Source: Synechococcus elongatus PCC 6301 (GTDB taxonomy: Bacteria; Cyanobacteriota; Cyanobacteriia; Synechococcales; Synechococcaceae). From it: 32,000 nucleotides of DNA. Positions 3,325 to 25,388 of this stretch are shown here, one piece after another. Each line of letters starts with the position of its first letter. Within the stretch, counting starts at the first letter, position 1. The stretch lies in NCBI RefSeq assembly GCF_000010065.1, contig NC_006576.1, positions 1,731,522 through 1,763,521 of the forward strand. Reading direction: 5' to 3'. The notes under the pieces were generated by a model. It saw only the letters and a list, made by a program, of their open reading frames with translations. It did not search any database and was not told the origin of the DNA. Made by a program: the position numbers and the translations under genes.

Positions 3325-3546
3325 GGGCGGCTGAGAAAGCAAGCGCTGCGGCCGCCGCAACGCCTTCCCATATTAGCGCCGCCGATCGAGGCATCGGGAT
3401 CCTCCTGCAGAAACGTGACTGAGCTTAAACAACTGGCGATCGCTTAAGCATGGCCCGAAGACTGCAAAACATTAAGGGCGGAGCGGCTTTTATTGATCGC
3501 CCGCAACCCTTGGTGCTTAATAGGGGCGTATTCGGCTGGATCACGA

Positions 3547-4167
3547 ATGATCAGCGTCTATTGGTTTTGCTTTTTATTCGGTGGCATTTTTGTGGCACTT
3601 GCCGCTGTCGGAGGGCTGGACCACGATTTCGGTCATGACTTCGACTCTGACTTTGACCACAGTTTTGACGCTGAAGCAGCGGTTGAGCCCGATGTAGCCG
3701 CTGATGTCGATCTGCCAGAGCCTCCAAGTTCAGGGCGGCGGCTGTGGTTGCCGATTACCAGCTTTAAGTTTTGGACCTTTGGCCTTTGTTTCTTTGGCAT
3801 GACGGGTCTGCTGCTGGGCTGGCTCAATCCGAACTTGCCGGGCTCTCTGCAGTTGGGCCTTGCGATCGCGATGGGTCTGCTGCTGGGTACGGGCATGGCT
3901 GGTCTGCTGCGGCAGTTGCGCAATCGCCAGGTCGATAGTCTGGTGCGGAGTACGGATCTGGTTGGTGCCCGCGGCATCGTTGTCTTGCCTTTCAATGCCC
4001 AAAGCCGCGGCAAGGTGCAGCTGGAAGTCAAAAACAGTGTGATTGAGCTCAGTGCTTGTACCGATTCGCCCTTGGATTTTCAGCGGGGCGATGAAGTGGT
4101 GGTGCTGCGATCGGAAGGGCAACGACTGTGGGTGATTGGTCGCACGGAATTAGATCTGCAACCTTGA
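3547..4167 (+). CDS. NfeD-like / OB-fold membrane protein
   Basis: ORF 3493..4167, likely start Met19 at 3547. Has hydrophobic segments, an Asp/His-rich loop (DHDFGHDFDSDFDHSFDAE), and a C-terminal beta-rich domain (LVGARGIVVLPFNAQSRGKVQLEV...GDEVVVLRSEGQRLWVIG). Sits directly upstream of two flotillin-like genes. Confidence 0.7.
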   Translation: MISVYWFCFLFGGIFVALAAVGGLDHDFGHDFDSDFDHSFDAEAAVEPDVAADVDLPEPPSSGRRLWLPITSFKFWTFGLCFFGMTGLLLGWLNPNLPGSLQLGLAIAMGLLLGTGMAGLLRQLRNRQVDSLVRSTDLVGARGIVVLPFNAQSRGKVQLEVKNSVIELSACTDSPLDFQRGDEVVVLRSEGQRLWVIGRTELDLQP

Positions 4168-4207
4168 ACCGCTGCTGTCTGAGAGCTTGTTTCCTAGGAG
4201 AGTCTGT

Positions 4208-5548
4208 ATGTCCCTGCTCCCGCAATATTCCCCGCTGGTGCTAGCGCAATTTGAATCTCAGCCGTCCAGCCGTAATACCGGACAAGAAAGTGACTGGGTG
4301 GGCGGCACCCTCGGCTTTGGGATTGTTGGATTCCTTGTCCTGTTTGTCATCCTCAAATCCTGCCTGCGCATTTGTAACCCCAACGAAATTCTGATTGTGT
4401 CGGGGCGAAAGCATCGCAATCCCAAAGGGGAGATGGTGGGCTACCGTGTGCTGTTTGGTGGACGGACGCTGACGATCCCGGTGATCGAAACTGTCAAGCG
4501 CATGGACGTGACTACGATGCCCGTACCGGTTGAGGTGACTAATGCCTACGCCAAGGGCGGCACACCGATCAATATCCAAGCGATCGCCAACGTCAAAGTT
4601 TCAACGGATCCCCGCTTGGTCGGCAATGCGATCGAACGCTTCCTCGATCGCAATCGCTCTGAAATTGCCCGCGTCGCCCGCGAAACCCTAGAGGGCAACT
4701 TACGAGGGGTGGTCGCGACCCTCACTCCTGAAGAGGTCAATGAAGACCGGCTGCGGTTCGCGGAACGGATTGCTGAGGATGTCAGCCACGATCTCTCGAA
4801 ATTAGGGCTGCGGTTGGACACGCTCAAAATTCAAAGTGTGGCCGACGATGTGGACTACCTCAAGTCAATTGGTCGTCGTCGCATTGCCCAGATCACTCGC
4901 GATGCAGAGATTGCTGAGGCCGAAGCCCTAGGGGAAGCCGATCGCCGCGAGGCCGATGCCCAGCAGCAGGCAGAAGTTGCTCGCGCCCAGGCGGCAACGG
5001 TGGTGCAGCAGCGCCAGAACGAACTGCGCAAAATCAAGGCGCAACTCGATCAGCAAGTCCGCTCCGAGGAAGAACGGACAACCGCCGCCGCTAAGGAAGC
5101 TCGTGCTCGGGCGGAGCAGCGCCTCCAATCGCTACGGGCGGAGCTCGAAAAACTCCGGCTAGAAGCCGATGAGGTCTTACCTGCCGAAGCTCAACGGGTG
5201 GCCAAGACCCTGCAAGCCCGCGGTAGTGCGGCGGTGCTGGCTGAGAATGCCAAAGCGGCTGCAGAAGTGAGCGATCGCCTCAGTCAAGTCTGGCGATCAG
5301 CAGGCCCCGAAGCGGCGGAACTCTTCTTGATTCAACAGATTGAAATGGTGCTGCGAGAAGCGGCGCAAATTCCCGGACGGCTGCACCTCCACAAGGTTCG
5401 GGTCGTCGATGGCGGCGATGGCCAAGCCCTAGCCCGCTTGATTAATGCCTATCCAGAAATTGTCCAGCAGTTCCTACAGAGGGTGGACTCCACCTTGGGG
5501 CTGGATGTGATCGGAACCCTGAGCCGTCGTCCTGGAGGTGAAGTCTAA
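4208..5548 (+). CDS. SPFH/flotillin-family protein (paralogue 1)
   Basis: ORF 4187..5548, likely start MSLLPQYSP at 4208. N-terminal TM, CNPNEILIVSGRKHRNPKGEMVGYRVLFGGRTLTIPVIE, IQAIANVKVSTDPRLVGNAIERFL, then a long Ala/Glu-rich coiled coil. Confidence 0.9.
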   Translation: MSLLPQYSPLVLAQFESQPSSRNTGQESDWVGGTLGFGIVGFLVLFVILKSCLRICNPNEILIVSGRKHRNPKGEMVGYRVLFGGRTLTIPVIETVKRMDVTTMPVPVEVTNAYAKGGTPINIQAIANVKVSTDPRLVGNAIERFLDRNRSEIARVARETLEGNLRGVVATLTPEEVNEDRLRFAERIAEDVSHDLSKLGLRLDTLKIQSVADDVDYLKSIGRRRIAQITRDAEIAEAEALGEADRREADAQQQAEVARAQAATVVQQRQNELRKIKAQLDQQVRSEEERTTAAAKEARARAEQRLQSLRAELEKLRLEADEVLPAEAQRVAKTLQARGSAAVLAENAKAAAEVSDRLSQVWRSAGPEAAELFLIQQIEMVLREAAQIPGRLHLHKVRVVDGGDGQALARLINAYPEIVQQFLQRVDSTLGLDVIGTLSRRPGGEV

Positions 5549-6792
5549 TGTTTGAAACGATTTTTGCGCTGCTGATTGTTCTAGGCGCTGGCGCCGGGGC
5601 TGGCAGCTTAGTCCTGCGCAATCTCTACTACATCTGCCAACCCAGTGAAATTTTGATCTTTGCTGGCAGTAGTCGCCGCAGTAGTGATGGCCGCCGAGTT
5701 GGCTATCGCTTGGTCAAGGGCGGCAGCAGCCTGCGGGTACCTCTGCTGGAAAAAGCGCTCCGCATGGATCTGACCAACATGATCATTGAGTTGCGCGTTT
5801 CCAATGCCTTCTCCAAGGGCGGCATTCCCCTGACTGTTGAAGGCGTTGCCAATATCAAGATTGCTGGGGAAGAACCGACCATCCACAACGCGATCGAGCG
5901 GCTGCTTGGCAAAAACCGTAAGGAAATCGAGCAAATTGCCAAGGAGACCCTCGAAGGCAACTTGCGTGGTGTTTTAGCCAGCCTCACGCCGGAGCAGATC
6001 AACGAGGACAAAATTGCCTTTGCCAAAAGTCTGCTGGAAGAGGCGGAGGATGACCTTGAGCAGCTGGGTCTAGTCCTCGATACGCTGCAAGTCCAGAACA
6101 TTTCCGATGAGGTCGGTTATCTCTCGGCTAGTGGACGCAAGCAGCGGGCTGATCTGCAGCGAGATGCCCGAATTGCTGAAGCCGATGCCCAGGCTGCCTC
6201 TGCGATCCAAACGGCCGAAAATGACAAGATCACGGCCCTGCGTCGGATCGATCGCGATGTAGCGATCGCCCAAGCCGAGGCCGAGCGCCGGATTCAGGAT
6301 GCGTTGACGCGGCGCGAAGCGGTGGTGGCCGAAGCTGAAGCGGACATTGCTACCGAAGTCGCTCGTAGCCAAGCAGAACTCCCTGTGCAGCAGGAGCGGA
6401 TCAAACAGGTGCAGCAGCAACTTCAAGCCGATGTGATCGCCCCAGCTGAGGCAGCTTGTAAACGGGCGATCGCGGAAGCGCGGGGGGCCGCCGCCCGTAT
6501 CGTCGAAGATGGAAAAGCTCAAGCGGAAGGGACCCAACGGCTGGCGGAGGCTTGGCAGACCGCTGGTGCTAATGCCCGCGACATCTTCCTGCTCCAGAAG
6601 CTCGAGTCCCTGCTCGTCACGCTTTCAGGCACCGTGCCAGATATCGACGTGGAGTCGATCACTGTGATTGGCGAAGGGGAAGGCAGCGCTACCCAAATCG
6701 CTAGCTTGCTGGAGAAGCTGAAACAAACCACGGGCATTGATCTGGCGAAATCCCTACCGGGTCAATCCGACTCGCCCGCTGCGAAGTCCTAA
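5548..6792 (+). CDS. SPFH/flotillin-family protein (paralogue 2)
   Basis: CQPSEILIFAGSSRRSSDGRRVGYRLVKGGSSLRVPLLE, VEGVANIKIAGEEPTIHNAIERLLGKN, coiled-coil C-terminus. TAATG overlap with the upstream paralogue, SD GGAGG upstream. Confidence 0.9.
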   Translation: MFETIFALLIVLGAGAGAGSLVLRNLYYICQPSEILIFAGSSRRSSDGRRVGYRLVKGGSSLRVPLLEKALRMDLTNMIIELRVSNAFSKGGIPLTVEGVANIKIAGEEPTIHNAIERLLGKNRKEIEQIAKETLEGNLRGVLASLTPEQINEDKIAFAKSLLEEAEDDLEQLGLVLDTLQVQNISDEVGYLSASGRKQRADLQRDARIAEADAQAASAIQTAENDKITALRRIDRDVAIAQAEAERRIQDALTRREAVVAEAEADIATEVARSQAELPVQQERIKQVQQQLQADVIAPAEAACKRAIAEARGAAARIVEDGKAQAEGTQRLAEAWQTAGANARDIFLLQKLESLLVTLSGTVPDIDVESITVIGEGEGSATQIASLLEKLKQTTGIDLAKSLPGQSDSPAAKS

Positions 6793-16957: not shown

Positions 16958-18538
16958 ATGGCTCGACGATGGGTCCACAAAAAACGCAACAGCAGCGATC
17001 GCGGCTATATCCTAGGCATCGTAATTGTCCTTGCCTTAGTTCTAGGGGTTAGTGTCGCTGCCCTAGCGCTCCGGAGTGCTGGTGAAAAAGCTGGGTCGAG
17101 CCAGCGGAATAGTGTTGATCTGAGCCTTTCAGCAGCAGAAATCGGTCAAGACCGCCTCTTTGCTAATCTCAATGGAGTTTTTGGACCTTATGCCTCAGCG
17201 GCGTTCCCTGATACAACGACAGGAGTTGCAACGACCGCAACTCGTTCTTGGGCACAACTCAGAACAGTTCTGACTTCGGGAGGGACAGCTAACGCTAATC
17301 CCTGCTCAACTCCAACTCCAGACTTTAATATCCTCACGACAGTTGGAACGAGTACTTTAGGAAATAGTGGTCAGCTGAGTTGGCAGTTGGTTAGCTATAA
17401 GCCTCAGGCTAACAATACAGCCCGGGTCGTCATGCGGGGTTTCCAAGGTACAAGTAGCTCAAACATACGAACAGAAGTTGAGCGAACCTACGCCACACGT
17501 CGAGTAACAGCCTTTAATACTGCTTCTACGTTTCCTGCACTGCTGACGGGCAGTGTGACACTAGGGAACAACGATGTAATTTCTGTCGTAGATCCAAATA
17601 CAGGACAATCTGTTTGTAACGCTAATGTTTACTGTCTAACTTGTACCGGTATTAATAATTTTGGCCAGAACCCTCAAAGTGTTGTTGATGGTGACTTGGT
17701 TTATCGTGCAACAACACCCGACGCCGATGGGAACTCTCTACTAAGTAATGGCATTGACTGGAATCAGAATACTAATTTTCCAGCTCCTAAGGTATGGCCA
17801 GGTTATCCAACAATCCCTATTCCTTTTTCTGCAGTAACTAACTTGCAAATTGCAGCTCTTTTTGCGGCACCTTCTTCTACTCTAAATCCTGGGTTCTACA
17901 ATGACTTAGGGGGTAGGCTAAGCCCAAGTAACCCGCTAGATTTACGGCTGAATCCAGATATCACAGGAAGTATCACTCTTCCGCGCTCAACTGATGTTAT
18001 TGGAGCAAATGGAGCCTACAACTATTTAGTCCGGGATGTAACAACCAACGGTAATGAGTTTATTCGCGTCAATACGCCTGGCTGCGAAGGTGTAACCCCC
18101 GTCCCAACTTCAACCTGTAAGCCAGTTTATCTATATGTCGTGGGTGACGTGAATGCTGATTTCTTGCATACAAACTCGCCCACTGGGACTACAACGGTTA
18201 ATGAGCCGGAAGACTTTGTGATTTTTGGTCGGCCTGGTGACTACACTGCCTCTGGCATTGATCAGACCATTACTATCAATGGTGGCTCGCGAGTAACCAG
18301 TGCTTTAGTGGTCGCTCCCCGCGCACGAGTAGGCGTCAACGGGGGGTCTAACAACCCAGACTTTTACGGTGCTGTCTGGTCAAAGGAATGGAATGGCTCT
18401 AGTAGTAATAACGTTGAGATTGTTGTTCCCCTCGACATTGCTGAGAGAGCAAGAGAATTCTACAATTCACCCCGTCCAACGGTCCTTCGCCTGAACTTCC
18501 TAGATATTTGGAGAGCAGGGGGTACGTTTAATCCATGA
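16958..18538 (+). CDS. Large minor-pilin-like protein (PilX/GspK- or HpsA-like N-terminus), copy 1
   Basis: N-terminus DRG|YILGIVIVLALVLGVSVAALALRSAGEKAG resembles a prepilin-peptidase site followed by a hydrophobic helix. Clear paralogy with 20096..21583 at both termini (GYIL..., AAEIG..RL; C-terminal APRARVGVNGG...NNVEIVVPLD). Confidence 0.8.
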   Translation: MARRWVHKKRNSSDRGYILGIVIVLALVLGVSVAALALRSAGEKAGSSQRNSVDLSLSAAEIGQDRLFANLNGVFGPYASAAFPDTTTGVATTATRSWAQLRTVLTSGGTANANPCSTPTPDFNILTTVGTSTLGNSGQLSWQLVSYKPQANNTARVVMRGFQGTSSSNIRTEVERTYATRRVTAFNTASTFPALLTGSVTLGNNDVISVVDPNTGQSVCNANVYCLTCTGINNFGQNPQSVVDGDLVYRATTPDADGNSLLSNGIDWNQNTNFPAPKVWPGYPTIPIPFSAVTNLQIAALFAAPSSTLNPGFYNDLGGRLSPSNPLDLRLNPDITGSITLPRSTDVIGANGAYNYLVRDVTTNGNEFIRVNTPGCEGVTPVPTSTCKPVYLYVVGDVNADFLHTNSPTGTTTVNEPEDFVIFGRPGDYTASGIDQTITINGGSRVTSALVVAPRARVGVNGGSNNPDFYGAVWSKEWNGSSSNNVEIVVPLDIAERAREFYNSPRPTVLRLNFLDIWRAGGTFNP

Positions 18539-19128
18539 AGAGAATTCATAAACGATCGCGCCGGTCGCAGTTAGGCTTCTCACTGGTCGAGATCCTAGTC
18601 GCTGCTATTCTGACTGTCCTCTTAGCTCAAGCAACTGCGGCTGCTTTAAGAATTTCAGTCCAAACTCAAAATCGGGCCAGCACTGAAAACTCTTTTGAAA
18701 ATGCCATTGTTGCTGATTTAGAGCAAGTTAGAGCTATCAATCGAAATCTTTGCCGTAATCCTAACTTTGATCGCACTGCAACAACTTCTCCTAACAACCT
18801 GAGCTATGGTCCTTTTGGTGACTGTGCTGGAACTATCTTTCAGGAAAGATGCCGGGCAACGGGCACCACACCCGGATTTGGTAATCTTCTCCAAGCGCAA
18901 GTCCCTAATTTTACGAGCCAGACTGTGATTGTGAATGGACAGACTTGGACTATATCTCGACAAACTCTTGTTCCCGATCGTCCTCTCAACTCAGGAGATG
19001 CCGGCTATGCAGAATCGAGTCAGTCAGTATTGAAGGTTAGATATGACTTGACTAGAGGAAGTACAACAATTGCACCGGCTTTTGTCACCGAGTTTGTTCC
19101 TGATGCAGTAGGCTCGTGTCAAGGATAA
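18535..19128 (+). CDS. Type IV minor pilin, PilV-like, copy 1
   Basis: LG|FSLVEILVAAILTVLLAQATAAAL class III signal peptide with Glu at +5; ATGA overlap with upstream gene; paralogous to 21583..22152. Confidence 0.82.
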   Translation: MKRIHKRSRRSQLGFSLVEILVAAILTVLLAQATAAALRISVQTQNRASTENSFENAIVADLEQVRAINRNLCRNPNFDRTATTSPNNLSYGPFGDCAGTIFQERCRATGTTPGFGNLLQAQVPNFTSQTVIVNGQTWTISRQTLVPDRPLNSGDAGYAESSQSVLKVRYDLTRGSTTIAPAFVTEFVPDAVGSCQG

Positions 19129-19273
19129 GTTAATTAACCCTAGTATTAAACTTTCTACTAGATTAAAGGTTTGCCCTTTCTAGCATGTCCATAGCATTCG
19201 TTTAATTCATTCTTTCATCCTGAAACTCAGTAGTCAGTATGACTCGTAGCCTAGCAACAGGAGAACTATCGAG

Positions 19274-19966
19274 ATGAGTACGCAACGCCTCTTTTGGCGA
19301 TGGTTTTTACAGCGTCATGGTGAAGCTGGTATCACTCTAGTCGAGGTTCTAGTTGCGGGTATTATTGGCGTGTTGGTTGTTTTGGCGGGCGGTTATGCGT
19401 TAGTGACCAACCTCCGAGTCGATCGCGAACTGTCATCAGCCGCAATTCAACGCAATCTTCAAACGAGAGCTTTGGAGTACATCAGTAGTGAAGTCCGTCA
19501 AGCCAACTTAATCTACGCGCCGAATAACACACCGAACCTGTGCAGTAGCTATACGAGAGTCTTGGGGCTGCAAACAACGGTGAATGGTAGCAATCGCAAT
19601 ATTGTTTATGCGGTTGGCAATGCCAACAACCCATGGCGGGGCGATCGCGTGCTATATCGCTGTGGCCCGCCAATCGATACCTCCACTGGACGTTACAGCT
19701 CAGGTAGCGACGTTGAAGAAGTGATTTTGGATGGCTTGAGCAGCGCTACCCTGGTGGCTAATAGCAATGGATGTGGTGCTGTCCCGACGGCCTACGCTGT
19801 TAGCAGCAGCAATACAGCAGGCCTGCGTGCTTTTTTCCGTACTGCCAGTAACGTCGTGAACACTAATTCCGCACAAATTCTGCTGGGGATGCAAATTGAT
19901 CGAGGTATTCAAGGAAATGCAACGAGTTGTGCAAGCATTGTTGCTTCCAATCGTTCGACCCCTTGA
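19274..19966 (+). CDS. Type IV minor pilin, PilW-like, copy 1
   Basis: AG|ITLVEVLVAGIIGVLVVLAGGYALVTNLRVDRELSS; shares RNLQTRALEYISSEVRQAN and YRCGP with 22195..23427. Confidence 0.82.
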   Translation: MSTQRLFWRWFLQRHGEAGITLVEVLVAGIIGVLVVLAGGYALVTNLRVDRELSSAAIQRNLQTRALEYISSEVRQANLIYAPNNTPNLCSSYTRVLGLQTTVNGSNRNIVYAVGNANNPWRGDRVLYRCGPPIDTSTGRYSSGSDVEEVILDGLSSATLVANSNGCGAVPTAYAVSSSNTAGLRAFFRTASNVVNTNSAQILLGMQIDRGIQGNATSCASIVASNRSTP

Positions 19967-20095
19967 TAAATGAGTAATGCTAAGTATTTAGCGATTTTTG
20001 ATCGCCTAGAGAATCTAGTGAACTGTACTTGTCTACCGCTAGCAGCAAAAATTCACTAAGATTTGGGTATATTCGTCTCTGGTGCTTAGGCTGCA

Positions 20096-21583
20096 GTGAT
20101 GGTGAGACCTATCCAACTTGTGCGGGCGTGGTTGATCAGGCGATCGCCTAAGGCACGGTACCGTAAGCCCGGTGGGTACATTTTGGCGACCGTCATTGGT
20201 TTGAGCCTTATTTTGGCGGTTGGCATCACCTCAGTCAGCATCCGAGCTGCTGCCGAGCGAGCAGGTAGTTTGCAGACAACGACGATAAATCTTTCTCAAT
20301 CCGCAGCCGAAATTGGGATCGAGCGCTTGTATGCCGTTCTCAACAACGGACCTTATCAGTCATTAGCAAGCAAAAGATTTGATAGAGATTCAGACACAAC
20401 TACTTGGACAACAGAGATCAGTAATATCAACTCGGCAGCCAATCAGAACAGTAACAACGTAAGAGGGTGTGGTATTACCCCAGCAGTTACCACCCAGCAG
20501 CAGCTAAATGACTTGACAGCCGGGACTACAACAATTGCTTCTACTTCAAACAATATCTGGTGGAGACTGAAGAGCTATTCCCCACCGGATCTAACAACTA
20601 ATCCAAAAACCCCTGCAACTATCGTGATGCAAGGTGGAACAGGTACTAGCTCTGGTGATACCTCAGGTCGAAGAACCGAAATTGAGAAAAAGTTTTTCCC
20701 TGAGAATGGAACCCCCATTCTTCGCAATGCACTAGGAAATGCTGCACTCTTTGCCGGGTCAATTGACCTTGGCAACAATGATGTCCTCTCCAGTGATGCT
20801 ACTCAGGGCTGCGCCAACGTCTATTGCCGGGATTGCCAAACTGGGCAAGGTCCAAACAGTACTGTTGAAGGGGCCGTTATTACCTTGCCAGCTTCAGTTC
20901 CATTCCCGGAACCAAAAGTCTGGCCATCTTCTGGAGCAACCCAAGCGAATGGTTTCTACGACCGTAAAGGTCAAGCGCAACCTTTTGGAACTCCCCCACT
21001 CTTACGAGTTGCAGATTTTCCTAATACAGATGCCAATAAGTTTATCAACATTCGAGTTGATGATATTCCTGCCAATTTAAAAGTCATTAATGACAGTTGT
21101 GGGGGAGCTATCAGCACTCCTGATCGATTGCCTGTCAATACCAATTCCGGCTGTAAGCGAGTTGCAATTTACTTTGAAGGCAATATCACTGGACCTATTA
21201 CTCAACTTTATGCAGACCTTCCTACGGCTACCTTTCTTCCTTACCCAGAAAATCTAGTTCTTTATGGCTTGCCTTCCACTGCCACCGGCAATCAAAACAT
21301 TACCTTAAGTGGCAACAGTGACAAAATTCAAGGAGCAGTTATCGTAGCTCCCAAAGCCCGTGCTGGGATTAACGGTGGTCCGCCGAAAAGTCGTACTAAC
21401 CCAGATGTTTATGGGCCACTCTATGTGGGAATTTGGGATCGCTCTAACAGTAATAACGCAGAAATTGTCGTTCCTTATGATATGTTTGCCCGAATTGATG
21501 GCTTAATTCCCAATCTCAATGAGATCACGACTTTAGTTTCACTGCGGAGTGCAACATCATGGCAAAAGGGAGGCAATCTCTAG
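20096..21583 (+). CDS. Large minor-pilin-like protein (PilX/GspK- or HpsA-like N-terminus), copy 2
   Basis: PGG|YILATVIGLSLILAVGITSVSIRAAAERAG; C-terminal APKARAGINGG...NPDVYGPLY...NNAEIVVPYD parallels copy 1. Start could be GTG 20096 or ATG 20099. Confidence 0.8.
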   Translation: MMVRPIQLVRAWLIRRSPKARYRKPGGYILATVIGLSLILAVGITSVSIRAAAERAGSLQTTTINLSQSAAEIGIERLYAVLNNGPYQSLASKRFDRDSDTTTWTTEISNINSAANQNSNNVRGCGITPAVTTQQQLNDLTAGTTTIASTSNNIWWRLKSYSPPDLTTNPKTPATIVMQGGTGTSSGDTSGRRTEIEKKFFPENGTPILRNALGNAALFAGSIDLGNNDVLSSDATQGCANVYCRDCQTGQGPNSTVEGAVITLPASVPFPEPKVWPSSGATQANGFYDRKGQAQPFGTPPLLRVADFPNTDANKFINIRVDDIPANLKVINDSCGGAISTPDRLPVNTNSGCKRVAIYFEGNITGPITQLYADLPTATFLPYPENLVLYGLPSTATGNQNITLSGNSDKIQGAVIVAPKARAGINGGPPKSRTNPDVYGPLYVGIWDRSNSNNAEIVVPYDMFARIDGLIPNLNEITTLVSLRSATSWQKGGNL

Positions 21584-22152
21584 TGGGATTGAGTTTTCTT
21601 ACCAAGCCTTACAAATCCCTTGGCCGGCGGCGTCGCTCTCAACGAGGCTTTAGCATAACTGAAGTTATCGTTGCTGCCATCCTGACCATTTTGATCGCTC
21701 AGGCAACAACTGCTGCTTTAGTGGTTAATGCTCGAACTCAGGGCACCTCTGTCGAAGAGTCGCAATTTCTGAGGATTGTTAACCAAGATGTTGAGCGAGT
21801 CCGAGATGTTGCTAGTGCACTGTGTAGAAGCTCAACTTCTCCCTTGAGCTACAACGGTTGCAATCCTCCAACTAATCCCAGCTTGAAACAACGCTGTGAC
21901 AGTACAAGTTCTAATGCTGGGCTGGCACAATTACTTTCAAGTAGCCTACCCGCTTTCTCTGACAATATATTTACAAGTAAAAATCGTTCGACTGTGACGA
22001 TCACTAGAACTTCCTCTATCCCGACTGTCCCGGGTGCCTCATCTTTCTCTGTGTTACGTCTGGCCTATACTTCATCTGGTCTATCACCGAATTTATCGTA
22101 TGTGACGGAAGTGGTGCCGGACGTCGTCGGTTGGTGCTCAACTGCCATTTAA
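21583..22152 (+). CDS. Type IV minor pilin, PilV-like, copy 2
   Basis: RG|FSITEVIVAAILTILIAQATTAAL. The provided ORF starts at 21559, but an in-frame GTG at 21583 overlaps the upstream stop (TAGTG) and has GGGAGG at suitable distance. Confidence 0.82.
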   Translation: MGLSFLTKPYKSLGRRRRSQRGFSITEVIVAAILTILIAQATTAALVVNARTQGTSVEESQFLRIVNQDVERVRDVASALCRSSTSPLSYNGCNPPTNPSLKQRCDSTSSNAGLAQLLSSSLPAFSDNIFTSKNRSTVTITRTSSIPTVPGASSFSVLRLAYTSSGLSPNLSYVTEVVPDVVGWCSTAI

Positions 22153-22194
22153 AAACCTTCATTCAACTGATCACTAGTTTTTACAGGCATATCC

Positions 22195-23427
22195 ATGAAG
22201 AGCGATAACTTAAGTGCCTTGCTAAGAATCTATTGGGCTCTAGTACCCAAGGATGAAGCGCGATCGCAGCAAGGGTTTACGATTACCGAGTTATTGGTCG
22301 CCAGTACCATTGGTATCATTGTGATTTTGGGCGGAGGCTATCTGCTTAAGACTAATCTCGATGTCGATCGTGTTAGCTCTACCAACTCAGCTCAAAGGAA
22401 TATTCAAAATCGAGCCTTAGATTTTATTAGTAATGAAATTAGGCGGGCCAATGCTGTTGTGAGTTCAAGCTCTCGTTCCTGTAACGGAGTAACGCCAGTC
22501 CTCAGTATTCGAGTACCTGATCCGAGCAACTCTACGAGCACTTCCGCAGTCAGAATTATCGACTACGCCGTTGCTACTCCAGCTGCTCCTTGGCAAACGA
22601 CTAGTAATGCTCGGGCGATTTATCGATGTGGCCCAGAGATTAACAGTTCTGGTCAATATGATTTCACTTCTTCCACAACCGTGACTGACCTGCTCGTTGA
22701 TCGAGTTGCAAATGCTAACCCTACGGCAAGCGGTGTTTGTAGCAATCTTAATGCCAATGCAATTACTTCACCTTTTTCGGGCTCAGCAACAACTAGTGGA
22801 ACAAACGGTTTAGTTGTTCGCTACGAAGCAAGTGATCCGCGATCGGCTCAAGTCTTGATTGCCTTCTTGCGAAACGTAGGGAATGGAGGTTCTCCAGGTA
22901 CCGACTGCGTCACGAATATTGTTGCTGCTCGCGCGATTGATCCTGCCAATATTGCGTCTAGCCCATCGCCTAGCCCTACGCCGACACCCACGCCTACGCC
23001 GAGCCCATCTCCTACTCCGTCACCTAGCCCTACGCCGACACCCACGCCTACGCCGAGCCCATCTCCCACTCCGTCACCTAGCCCTACGCCGACACCCACG
23101 CCCACGCCAAGCCCATCACCTGCGCCGACTCCCGTTTCTATCTCAATTGCCTCAATTTCTGGTGGAGGTAATAACTCAACTGTTGGGCTTAACCTTGGTA
23201 GCCTTAGTTTGCTCGCAGGTGTAACCGGTTTCAGGATTTTTGGTTGCACACAAAACAATAGTACCTGTACACCTTCCACGGGCGGTACGCCGACCTTAAC
23301 TACTTCATCCACTACCCCTACTATTCCAAATATCGACTTGCAAGGTAATAGGAGAGCTTGTTTTACTGCTCAAGCAGTTGGACCTCTCAATATTGTTTTA
23401 GGAACTTCTACTGTGTGCACAAATTAA
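22195..23427 (+). CDS. Type IV minor pilin, PilW-like, copy 2, with Ser/Thr-Pro repeat linker and extra C-terminal domain
   Basis: QG|[35 protein letters not shown]; paralogous to 19274..19966 up to about residue 250, then [18 protein letters not shown] repeats and a Cys-containing tail. Confidence 0.85.
22966..23127 (+). repeat. Three tandem copies of a 54-bp in-frame repeat encoding [18 protein letters not shown] (third copy diverged)
   Basis: Units at 22966-23019, 23020-23073 and 23074-23127. Units 1 and 2 differ at about two bases by eye; unit 3 ends ...SPSPAP. Confidence 0.95.
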
Positions 23428-23438
23428 GTTCTATTCTT

Positions 23439-24317
23439 GTGAATTTTGACTTGAAGCCTCTAAATTTGATAAAAACTATTTATGATTTCAGTCGACAAGA
23501 GGTTCTTTTAACTGAAACTGAGTTGTTTCAGTTACTCCAAAGCTTTGAGGACTGTCCACCTCGTGAGAGTCTACAAAGTTCCTCTTTTCAGTGGAGGAAC
23601 CTGTTGTTTTCTCAGGTGTCAGCGGGTAATACGACTTACTGGTATTCCCAACAAATACCGATTCAAATCAATTCAAATTTAAGTGGTATTGCCAACCATC
23701 TAGCTGTAGAGTCTTCAACAGGGAAGCCAGATATTTTATATTGGCGAATCCTTGATTTTTTAAGCCCTGAAAAGCTACAACAGCTTTGGAATTATTTACT
23801 AACTGCCCGATCGCAATTTAATCCGGCTCACAACTCCGCAGGTTTGAATAACTATCGACAATCTCTTTTTACTGCTCCTCCTCCTGAAATTTATTCCGAG
23901 ATCAGTGAAAAGATTTTAGGTGCTTTGATACCAATTGCCGATGAGCTGCCCAATTCCTCACAAGAAATTGGCGAGATAGAGATGCAAATAACAGCTCACA
24001 ACGATGGTCATTATTACAAAATTCATAATGATAACGGCAGTCCTGATACAGCTACACGTTTTCTCACTTACGTTTACTACTTCTATCGACAACCCAAACC
24101 ATTTACTGGTGGCGAGCTGCGACTGTATGAACTTGCTATCAAAGATGGCTTTTACGTTGCAGGCGATCGCTATCAAGACATTGAACCGCTACACAATAGC
24201 CTGATTGTTTTCCCAAGCCACTACATGCACGAAGTTCTACCGATTCGATGTCCTTCTCAGCGATTTGAGGATAGCCGCTTTACAGTTAATGGTTGGATTC
24301 GAGTTGCTATTGACTGA
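23439..24317 (+). CDS. 2-oxoglutarate/Fe(II)-dependent dioxygenase, prolyl-4-hydroxylase-like catalytic domain
   Basis: Contains HYYKIHNDNG (HxD), TRFLTYVYYFYRQPKPFTGGELRLYE, NSLIVFPSHYMHEVLPI (distal His) and RFTVNGWIRV (2OG-binding Arg). In-frame GTG at 23439 lies 11 nt after the pilin stop; the provided ORF starts at 23358 inside the pilin gene. Confidence 0.82.
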   Translation: MNFDLKPLNLIKTIYDFSRQEVLLTETELFQLLQSFEDCPPRESLQSSSFQWRNLLFSQVSAGNTTYWYSQQIPIQINSNLSGIANHLAVESSTGKPDILYWRILDFLSPEKLQQLWNYLLTARSQFNPAHNSAGLNNYRQSLFTAPPPEIYSEISEKILGALIPIADELPNSSQEIGEIEMQITAHNDGHYYKIHNDNGSPDTATRFLTYVYYFYRQPKPFTGGELRLYELAIKDGFYVAGDRYQDIEPLHNSLIVFPSHYMHEVLPIRCPSQRFEDSRFTVNGWIRVAID

Positions 24318-24321
24318 TTTT

Positions 24322-24873
24322 CTAGCTTGAAGTTCGACAGCTACCGCTTTGCACAGTACCAGTTCTGACTAGCCCTAGGGGTCGTGCAAGAACGACACAG
24401 CGTTGTACTGGCGTTAATGTACTACTCAAGCGAATTTCTTGGGTTGCATTACCTGTCCAGTAAACATTGCCGCTGGGATATGCGAGTACGTTTGAACTTA
24501 GATTCTGAGCTACTGTGATTTGATTTCTAGCAAAGCTACGACTACGTAAAAGACAATTCCCCGTGGGTGCTGCTGTTGTATCACGGTTAATTCCACCAGC
24601 AACAAGATCAGTGGCTTTCAAGGTACAGGTTCGATTTAACCGCTGAGCTTCACGTTGCATCTCTAGAATGGCTGACTGTACTTCTGAAGTAGCTTGATCT
24701 AGCTCTTGCTGACCCAAAAAACCAGCCACGCTAGGTCCTGCGATCGCGGCTAGAATCCCTGCCACAATTAAAACGACTAAGATCTCAGTGATTGTAAAAC
24801 CTTGCGATCGCACTGCTCGGCGTAAATGAGCATAAAGTAAACGCTGCTCTAAGACGAGTTTTAATCGTGACAT
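24322..24873 (-). CDS. Type IV minor pilin, FimT/GspH-like
   Basis: SQG|FTITEILVVLIVAGILAAIAGPSVAGFLGQQELDQATSEVQSAILEMQREAQR. ORF extends to 24888; MSRLKL at 24873 is an alternative start. Confidence 0.85.
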   Translation of the reverse strand: MSRLKLVLEQRLLYAHLRRAVRSQGFTITEILVVLIVAGILAAIAGPSVAGFLGQQELDQATSEVQSAILEMQREAQRLNRTCTLKATDLVAGGINRDTTAAPTGNCLLRSRSFARNQITVAQNLSSNVLAYPSGNVYWTGNATQEIRLSSTLTPVQRCVVLARPLGLVRTGTVQSGSCRTSS

Positions 24874-25388
24874 TGCTAACCTTTCCATCCCAACGCGATC
24901 GCAGCTTACCTCTATTCTCGCAAACGATGCAGGGATTAGCTTGCCCTAGGCGAGCGATCTTGTGCCAAAGACCGATCGCCTGGCCTTTCCTGATCAATAC
25001 TCAGTGACTCTCTAACTATAGTCAGCGCATGATCAACAGAGGCTACCTAGTAAAAAAGATAGGACTGGTGTAGTCGAATAAGGATCAGCTTATCTTCAAC
25101 AACAACTCACTACGCTCAAACATTGCTTAGCTACTCTCTGAGACTGTCGCGATCGCCTTCAACCCCTGCCAGAGTAGTACTGCCAATGTCTGAATTCTTG
25201 TTGTGTCTACCGCTTCTCCTGCGCAGAGAGTAGATCAGTGATCGACCCCAAGAACTCTCTGGTATTCCAAAGAAACCAGTAATCTCCTATCCATTAGTGA
25301 TAGCGATCGCTGTTGGGGCGGATTTCTCGCCTGCCAGCATCAAGGCCCGAGTGTCAGAGTAGAAGGAGAACCCTTCAGAGGCAGACTG

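Follow-up and report, generated by a model that had tools for sequence, protein, structure and literature searches.

We analysed a 32,000-nucleotide stretch of Synechococcus elongatus PCC 6301 (contig NC_006576.1, positions 1,731,522 to 1,763,521; hereafter the window) in which the gene for a PilW-type minor pilin with a proline-repeat linker, Synpcc7942_2481 (Q8GIS7; 22195-23427, plus strand, 410 residues), is followed on the same strand by a gene for a PHD-like 2-oxoglutarate (2OG)-Fe(II) oxygenase, Synpcc7942_2480 (23439-24317); locus tags are shortened to their last four digits below. The neighbourhood statistics of the enzyme family are most economically read as a functional connection with the X-Pro spacers of exported proteins, and direct hydroxylation is the simplest form of such a link. 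Adjacency, co-regulation and conservation make 2481 the local candidate substrate. We tentatively propose, with somewhat less than even confidence, that 2480 hydroxylates prolines of the 2481 linker. In the proposed mechanism, 2481 would carry a Cys-containing domain on an (S/T/A-Pro)n spacer of about 60 residues, standing off the pilus tip complex. The co-expressed 2480 would be a cytoplasmic Fe(II)/2OG-dependent protein prolyl hydroxylase of the PHD/PhyA/PPHD branch, would recognize its substrate through a variable N-terminal domain, and would convert spacer prolines to hydroxyproline before or during hand-over of the prepilin to the Sec machinery; the modification could alter stiffness, protease resistance or glycosylation of the spacer. 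The same enzyme family may act on X-Pro spacers of other exported proteins, such as PEP-CTERM proteins of Nostocales and other minor pilins.

The pilin 2481 begins with a class III prepilin signal (SQQG27/F28TITE32LLV) and a hydrophobic alpha1-N helix, with an N_methyl match (E = 3.5e-4) slightly under the Pfam cut-off. It shares the motif NRALDFIxxExR with the PilW open reading frames (ORFs) of two control clusters, L169 and L170. The proposed hydroxylation target is the (S/T/A-Pro)n linker of 59 residues (residues 255-313; 22957-23133, plus strand), encoded by a 54-nucleotide unit repeated 2.8 times with 94% match. It is followed by a 97-residue C-terminal domain with four Cys (23134-23424, plus strand), which had no match in Pfam or NCBIfam and is probably displayed beyond the pilin body. 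The linker-less paralogue 2484 (19274-19966) aligned to residues 1-247 of 2481 only (33% identity); the linker and end domain are therefore an addition to 2481. A first-pass annotation of the window had described a PilW-like pilin with a Ser/Thr-Pro linker at these positions, and all of its sequence statements were correct. It had also called the linker extensin-like: the proline repeat is present, but its SP/TP/AP alternation is nearer to arabinogalactan-protein type modules than to the Ser-Pro4 motif of extensins. Two further ORFs across the linker, one antisense (22848-23312, minus strand, 154 residues, GVGLGD repeats) and one out of frame (22883-23224, plus strand, 113 residues, LRRHP repeats), were rejected as by-products of the repeat in the linker; mass-spectrometry peptides confirm the sense frame.

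Read from the GTG at 23439, 2480 has 292 residues and starts 11 nucleotides past the pilin stop codon (TAA, 23425-23427), the gap given in the first-pass annotation. The start codon is ambiguous because a 100% identical S. elongatus database protein (P0001, 300 residues) begins at an alternative GTG at 23415, giving a 13-nucleotide overlap with the pilin gene. No terminator-like site was found between 2481 and 2480. The protein scored 67.8 bits with the Pfam family PF13640 (2OG-FeII_Oxy_3), well above the curated cut-off of 27 bits (E = 1.8e-18). The iron-binding HxD motif, H196-N-D198 (CAT AAT GAT; 24024-24032, plus strand), aligned with the HRD of Dictyostelium PhyA; the distal iron-binding His264 (CAC; 24228-24230, plus strand) lies in H264-E-V (24228-24236). 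Arg280 in RFTVNGW (24276-24278, plus strand) is presumably the ligand of the 2OG C5-carboxylate, judging from its position after the distal His and from comparison with PHD2. These residues, already picked out by the first-pass annotation, were present and invariant (H196, D198, H264 and R280) in alignments of 22 and of 69 homologous sequences. An AlphaFold2 (AF2) model of 2480 (predicted local distance difference test score, pLDDT, 86) consisted of a 78-residue N-domain, a disordered stretch at about residues 76-96 and a double-stranded beta-helix domain with at least eight strands in residues 177-289, and Foldseek related it to PHD structures with a probability of 1.00. The N-terminal domain (residues 1-78; 23439-23672, plus strand) is the fastest-evolving part of the locus. 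Modelled alone (AF2, pLDDT 86) it formed three helices and three strands, with no significant structural match in the PDB (best E = 0.63, template modelling (TM) score below 0.45). A winged-helix or DNA-binding N-domain, hinted at by a helix-helix-helix-hairpin order, was dropped after this search.

Similarity of the sequence and of the modelled structure places 2480 in the PHD/PhyA/PPHD branch of protein prolyl hydroxylases, and it would be expected to catalyse prolyl hydroxylation. The top 50 Foldseek matches in the PDB were all PPHD (in complex with EF-Tu), PhyA, human PHD2 or a Trichoplax PHD (E = 1e-10 to 2e-8, 20-24% identity). A family profile run against all PDB sequences matched PhyA (E = 2.9e-9), PPHD (E = 0.1) and a PKHD-type hydroxylase (E = 0.67); the remaining four matches were weak (E = 0.12-0.59) and to unrelated proteins. 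PPHD of Pseudomonas putida (PDB 4iw3/4j25) was the best Foldseek match (E = 7.5e-11, TM score 0.68 on the target, 22% identity) and, like 2480, is a bacterial protein with a single double-stranded beta-helix domain, an HxD...H...R motif and no evident signal peptide. Unlike 2480, PPHD has no extra N-terminal domain, and its target is one loop proline of EF-Tu, a universally conserved folded protein; the sequence similarity between the two is weak (E = 0.007-0.1), and PPHD is not known to be associated with pilins or Pro repeats. PhyA, the Skp1 prolyl 4-hydroxylase of Dictyostelium (PDB 6t8m), was the best sequence match among solved structures (E = 3e-5 with a single sequence, 2.9e-9 with the profile) and resembles the proposed 2480 in being cytoplasmic, whereas it is eukaryotic and has a single defined target proline and no repeat substrate. 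The hydroxyproline made by PhyA is then glycosylated, which parallels the glycosylation suggested in the first-pass annotation. The algal, plant, viral and collagen prolyl 4-hydroxylases (P4Hs; Chlamydomonas Cr-P4H-1, PBCV-1 P4H, plant P4Hs and collagen P4H) share superfamily and chemistry with 2480, and their substrates, polyproline-II X-Pro repeats of secreted proteins such as (Ser-Pro)n, (Ala-Pro)n and (X-Pro-Gly)n, are of the kind proposed here for 2480. These P4Hs work within the secretory pathway, whereas 2480 has no evident signal peptide. Many homologues of 2480 bear the JGI name of Tpa1/OGFOD1-type ribosomal prolyl hydroxylases. Proteins of that type have two tandem double-stranded beta-helix domains and about 550-650 residues; 2480, with only 292 residues and a single catalytic domain besides the 78-residue N-domain, was not assigned to it. 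Cyanophage 2OG-Fe(II) oxygenases (S-CAM9, S-MbCM6, S-N03 and others) were also structurally close to the catalytic domain of 2480 in BFVD (E down to 6e-13, TM score 0.79 on the target).

In published RNA sequencing (RNA-seq) data, 2483, 2482, 2481 and 2480 were all assigned to DF5 and O-A4 (down in PilB::Tn5), whereas other groups contained 2484-2486 (Simkovsky et al. 2022); genes 2483-2480 thus behave as one unit. Baseline expression of 2480-2483 is similar (Taton et al. 2020). The gene pair reported in the first-pass annotation is real, tightly linked and co-regulated. In the published exoproteome, 2483, 2482, 2481 and 2479 are extracellular and 2- to 18-fold lower in pilus-less mutants, and 2480 is unlisted; 2483 is 7-10 times lower in pilus mutants, and 2481 is 12-18 times lower in two of the pilus-mutant comparisons. 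Coverage of 2481 comprises 15 peptides (36%). In the part of the peptide data accessible to us, the listed Q8GIS7 peptides matched the ORF at 22195-23427 exactly, including the C-terminal domain, which identifies this ORF as 2481. Raw exoproteome data for S. elongatus exist (Yegorov 2021).

The pair is also retained in a diverged S. elongatus-like strain (L084/L085), in which flanking and housekeeping genes are 94-98% identical to those of the window and the whole pilin-oxygenase block is kept. Its PilW was 87% identical to 2481, with a linker of 61 residues in a different SP/TP/AP/VP pattern; the C-terminal domains were 85% identical, with a nonsynonymous to synonymous ratio (dN/dS) of 0.05. 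The oxygenase (L084, 11418-12284) was 71% identical to 2480 at the amino-acid level, with the highest dN of the locus (0.21) and a dN/dS of 0.135; identity was 52% in the N-domain and 79% in the catalytic domain. The pilins of the block were 79-95% identical and each evolved more slowly than the oxygenase. As judged from these sequence comparisons, the pilin-oxygenase pair persists in the diverged strain under purifying selection.

The oxygenase family has more than 1000 homologues, nearly all cyanobacterial, which carry names by homology only; their catalytic domains are 40-56% identical to that of 2480, and at least two N-domain types occur. We surveyed the neighbourhoods of 160 loci of the family (80 genomic and 80 metagenomic), counting a protein as Pro-rich when it held at least 12 Pro per 30 residues. 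Of 281 immediate neighbours, 26 were Pro-rich, compared with 10 among the 1467 other genes (P = 5e-14, odds ratio 15). Since related Nostocales contribute many of the loci, neighbour families were counted as well: Pro-rich members occurred in 10 of 112, whereas 0.76 would be expected (P = 9e-9), and six Pro-rich neighbour families remained when the five Nostocales-type families were merged into one. All of the Pro-rich neighbours were exported proteins, namely PEP-CTERM/XDD4/cistern proteins, a two-partner-secretion (TPS)/CHAT exoprotein, a PqqD-TM-(TP)n protein and minor pilins. In the PEP-CTERM neighbours, the (AP)n, (TP)n or (APTP)n runs reached about 100 repeats, and the N-domains found at the same position were of at least four kinds.

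In Nostocales, the slot between the oxygenase gene and grxC-gshB always held a PEP-CTERM protein with very long runs of these three kinds, about 450-1500 bp downstream of the oxygenase (L005, L017, L021, L022, L034-L036, L041-L043, L047, L051, L052, L063, L064, L066, L070, L072 and L073). The folded N-domains of these proteins varied by genome (XDD4 type, a Cys-containing type and others, one with KADYEKAQKDAD repeats), as if the N-domain were exchanged while repeat and anchor stay. At two Coleofasciculus-like loci (L015, 8372-10621; L089, 2618-5054), the oxygenase was fused to an N-terminal MauE membrane domain. The protein encoded in front of it combines a PqqD-like domain, a single membrane segment and a (TP)n run with a tail rich in Cys, and this PqqD/MauE::oxygenase locus looks like a peptide-modification cassette. 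No conserved operon partner emerged across the survey, the flanks varying by clade (hflX, purH, sppA, chlM, glgC, ankyrin-repeat, RTX-lectin, NACHT, AcrB). A tandem second oxygenase copy of the same family (292 residues) was present at Microcoleaceae-like loci (L010, L012, L028, L030, L044, L067 and L069), and the convergent neighbour of the oxygenase in Microcoleus (L038, L055 and L059) was a 493-residue ankyrin-repeat protein.

Two metagenomic loci outside S. elongatus paired the oxygenase with a pilin. At L112, an ORF at the contig edge with the PilW motif LNRAQDFIADEVR, two long (TP)n runs and then a DUF4082 domain ended 92 nucleotides upstream of a family oxygenase gene of the same orientation. 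Matching motifs occur in the two control clusters L169 and L170 (LNRALDFINDEVR and LNRALDYISDDIR) and likewise in the window pilin; the L112 ORF is a probable PilW-type pilin. At L097, a full-length oxygenase with the S. elongatus N-domain type adjoined a convergent 591-residue protein with a PilX/HpsA-like N-terminus, a DUF7305 match, weak collinear similarity to 2483 and about 40 SP repeats at its end. By catalytic-domain distance, the pilin-linked oxygenases of S. elongatus, L112 and L097 were not mutual nearest relatives, and the closest relatives of the L097 oxygenase (distance 0.16) had no pilin neighbour, which indicates that the pilin pairings arose separately. Among the near relatives of the L097 oxygenase, that of L121 lay at a contig edge and that of L116 (8280-10618) had three small ORFs upstream on the same strand that resembled the ribosomal protein genes rplM-rpsI-rpmE by eye. 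The pair at L112 was directly followed (3414-6344) by a 569-residue multi-pass membrane protein, with no match in Pfam (E up to 10) or NCBIfam (E up to 1), and by another oxygenase, this one of JmjC/Cupin_8 type; additional modification at this locus, for example by glycosylation, is conceivable but unsupported.

A phmmer search with all pilins of the window and those of L097 and L112 against every ORF of the 160 loci revealed no further pilins, although the great divergence of minor pilins keeps this from being a strong negative. First-scan regular-expression matches to pilins, such as SVALMEAA, were false positives within glutathione synthetase. Beyond its own lineage, only one homologue of the 2481 pilin domain was detected (P0121, 222 residues, with no linker and no oxygenase nearby), too few for a co-occurrence survey through pilin orthologues. 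No oxygenase and no Pro linker were found in the available sequence of the control clusters L169 and L170. Right behind the pilin domain, PilW-type ORFs at L169 (8962-9891) and L086 (2985-3746) entered low-complexity stretches without Pro repeats, Gly/Asn-rich and Gly/Thr-rich, respectively, within which both contigs end.

Several observations weigh against hydroxylation of the 2481 linker by 2480. The nearest solved relatives in the PHD branch are site-specific, each modifying a single defined proline of a folded cytoplasmic protein. Although the PDB contains collagen-, algal- and plant-type P4H structures, enzymes of this type were absent from the family-profile matches (all PDB sequences, E up to 10) and from the top 50 Foldseek matches. 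The wording prolyl-4-hydroxylase-like dioxygenase in the first-pass annotation therefore stands as regards nearness to PPHD, PhyA and PHD2, whereas the analogy that it drew with the algal and plant (Ser-Pro)n enzymes is not supported; nothing was found in support of the glycosylated and rigid stalk that it had envisaged. S/T-Pro linkers are common as unmodified spacers in bacterial secreted proteins. Neither a signal peptide nor a membrane segment was evident in 2480 by sequence inspection, with no dedicated predictor used, and Sec insertion of pilins may leave a cytoplasmic enzyme little access to the linker. The modifications listed in the accessible part of the exoproteome data were Met oxidation, deamidation and carbamidomethylation, with Pro oxidation not among them, and a C-terminal peptide of 2481 with four Pro was listed there unmodified. 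None of the published peptides covers the linker, which falls in a tryptic fragment some 100 residues long and is therefore invisible to tryptic proteomics. About 90% of the family members in the survey had no Pro-rich or pilin neighbour, their neighbours being housekeeping genes, among them hflX, purH, sppA, glgC and the probable rplM-rpsI-rpmE, and in the subfamily with the N-domain type of S. elongatus (type A; Pseudanabaena and relatives) most loci lacked such a neighbour, L097 being the only other type-A locus with one. The co-occurrence survey that the first-pass annotation had suggested thus returned two further pilin pairings and an excess of Pro-repeat neighbours, but neither at the great majority of loci. 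Insertion mutants are available for 2480 (UGS 17A4) and 2481 (UGS 4A7). In biofilm assays the 2480 mutant was wild-type, as was that of 2483, and the 2481 mutant was classed as a 'sporadic vessel-dependent biofilmer' (Simkovsky et al. 2022). In a transformation screen, 2480 had a fitness of -0.98 (P = 0.08) and 2481 of -0.35, neither of them significant (Taton et al. 2020). We keep our confidence in linker hydroxylation below even because the enzyme class is site-specific in every solved case, a seemingly cytoplasmic enzyme is set against a Sec-exported pilin, and the 2480 mutant had no significant phenotype in either screen.

These observations fit in part with other roles for 2480. Hydroxylation of a conserved cytoplasmic protein, as by PPHD on EF-Tu or by the ribosomal oxygenases, would make the adjacency to the pilin incidental or indirectly useful, for example through tuning of the translation of proline-rich proteins. 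The nearest structural relative is indeed the EF-Tu hydroxylase PPHD, catalytic domains from different cyanobacterial orders are 50-56% identical and have many invariant residues in common, the gene lies mostly among housekeeping and translation genes (hflX upstream in Nostocales, probable rplM-rpsI-rpmE upstream in L116), and the 2480 mutant had no pilus-related phenotype in two screens. A cytoplasmic target alone, however, leaves the 10 of 112 Pro-repeat neighbour families and the two further pilin pairings unexplained; 2480 also sits inside a low guanine-cytosine (GC) pilin island (GC 0.41 compared with 0.55-0.60 in the flanks) and outpaces every pilin of the block (dN 0.21), unlike an enzyme with a highly conserved target. 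We regard this explanation as rather unlikely, though it is the main rival to linker hydroxylation. Modification elsewhere in the pilus system, at a specific Pro, Lys, Asn or Asp of PilX, PilV, PilW or pilA2 or in the C-terminal domain, would suit the site specificity of PHD-type enzymes and the co-regulation of 2480 with four pilins rather than just one, and the fast-evolving N-domain could track any fast-evolving partner. The X-Pro repeat, however, is the sole feature common to the S. elongatus, L112, L097, PEP-CTERM, TPS and PqqD neighbours, which share no folded domain, and both peptides of the 2481 C-terminal domain among those listed in the accessible exoproteome data carried only carbamidomethylation or deamidation; such a target seems improbable. 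More improbable still, in our estimation, is that 2480 has no pilin substrate at all and is mainly a sensor or regulator (of oxygen, 2OG or iron), or else a passenger gene that came with an island acquired by horizontal transfer. The N-terminal modules of the family do vary, with a weak ribbon-helix-helix match in L112 (E = 0.007), the GC content of 2480 is the lowest in the island, and no mutant phenotype is known; against this stand the N-domain of 2480 without a significant match to DNA-binding folds, the invariant catalytic residues, the purifying selection on the gene, and the neighbourhood enrichment, which speaks against a pure passenger.

Linker hydroxylation would have a local precedent in the arrangement of Ogt next to pilA, in which a pilin gene stands beside the gene for its modifying enzyme. 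Cyanobacterial pilin genes often adjoin ogt, and the arrangement is known in S. elongatus; Ogt, which we infer to act in the cytoplasm, differs from 2480 in that it transfers a glycosyl group, has the major pilin as its target and has been shown experimentally to do so. The prolyl 4-hydroxylase annotation of 2480 is already in databases, as in the label 'Prolyl 4-hydroxylase, alpha subunit' (Taton et al. 2020, supplement), and its pairing with Pro-repeat pilins or PEP-CTERM proteins was not found described in the literature. In agreement with the first-pass annotation, which knew of no such substrate-enzyme pair for cyanobacterial type IV pili, our literature search found no report of it, of proline hydroxylation in pilins or PEP-CTERM proteins, or of type IV pili containing hydroxyproline. 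Hydroxylation is also absent from a 2025 review on cyanobacterial pili. If linker hydroxylation is true, a known enzyme family would gain a new substrate class. A functional pairing would represent a new post-translational modification in pilus biology and the first substrate class for a large cyanobacterial enzyme family, and would point to chemical modification, instead of a passive linker role, of the very long Ala-Pro/Thr-Pro spacers of cyanobacterial surface proteins. In a broader and doubtful extension, cytoplasmic PHD-like hydroxylases with interchangeable N-domains would modify X-Pro spacers before export throughout the phylum, on tip minor pilins, exosortase-dependent PEP-CTERM proteins (whose Ala-Pro runs reach about 100 repeats) and two-partner-secretion exoproteins, as a bacterial counterpart of the hydroxyproline-rich glycoprotein pathway that could prime O-glycosylation and set stalk stiffness or protease resistance. 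The question is directly testable, S. elongatus being a genetically tractable model organism.

The pair belongs to a low-GC island at 16958-24888 (GC 0.44-0.49 along the island and 0.41-0.51 per gene, compared with 0.55-0.60 in the flanks) that contains two paralogous three-gene minor-pilin cassettes, 33-38% identical to each other, followed by the oxygenase gene and a convergent FimT/GspH-like pilin gene. The first cassette (16958-19966, plus strand) comprises rntA, rntB and 2484 and has neither a Pro linker nor an oxygenase. The second opens with the PilX-like 2483 (20096-21583, plus strand), 33% identical to the rntA-type ORF at 16958-18538 and with remote homologues that bear DUF7305, and continues with the PilV-like 2482 (21559-22152, plus strand), which has a GFSITE motif and an N_methyl match and is 38% identical to the rntB-type ORF at 18535-19128. 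The FimT/GspH-like pilA2 (2479; 24322-24888, minus strand), with N_methyl and GspH matches, converges on the oxygenase gene and completes a PilX-PilV-PilW-FimT series. The locus tags 2486, 2485 and 2479 correspond to rntA, rntB and pilA2 (Taton et al. 2020, supplement). The second minor-pilin set of S. elongatus comprises 2483, 2482, 2481 and 2480 and, in convergent orientation, pilA2. Core sets of PilX-PilV-PilW-FimT (Com-type sets) have been described in cyanobacteria, with a competence set and a second set in S. elongatus (bioRxiv 10.64898/2026.02.12.705559); the four-gene composition is the same, but an oxygenase gene and a Pro-repeat linker are not part of that description. The two cassettes also differ in regulation and role: only the first is needed for transformation and is dusk/dark-induced, with fitness values of -2.7 for 2486 and -2.3 for 2485 in the transformation screen (Taton et al. 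2020), and the second is co-regulated with the oxygenase.

No tRNA gene was found in the window, and hence no such marker of the island borders, and promoter and terminator scans gave no more matches than expected by chance. Downstream of pilA2, the window has about 500 bp of intergenic sequence at 24889-25388. In the related strain (L084, 13187-13883; L085, 13131-13827), a nucleotidyltransferase/HepT toxin-antitoxin pair that the window does not carry is inserted between pilA2 and psb28.

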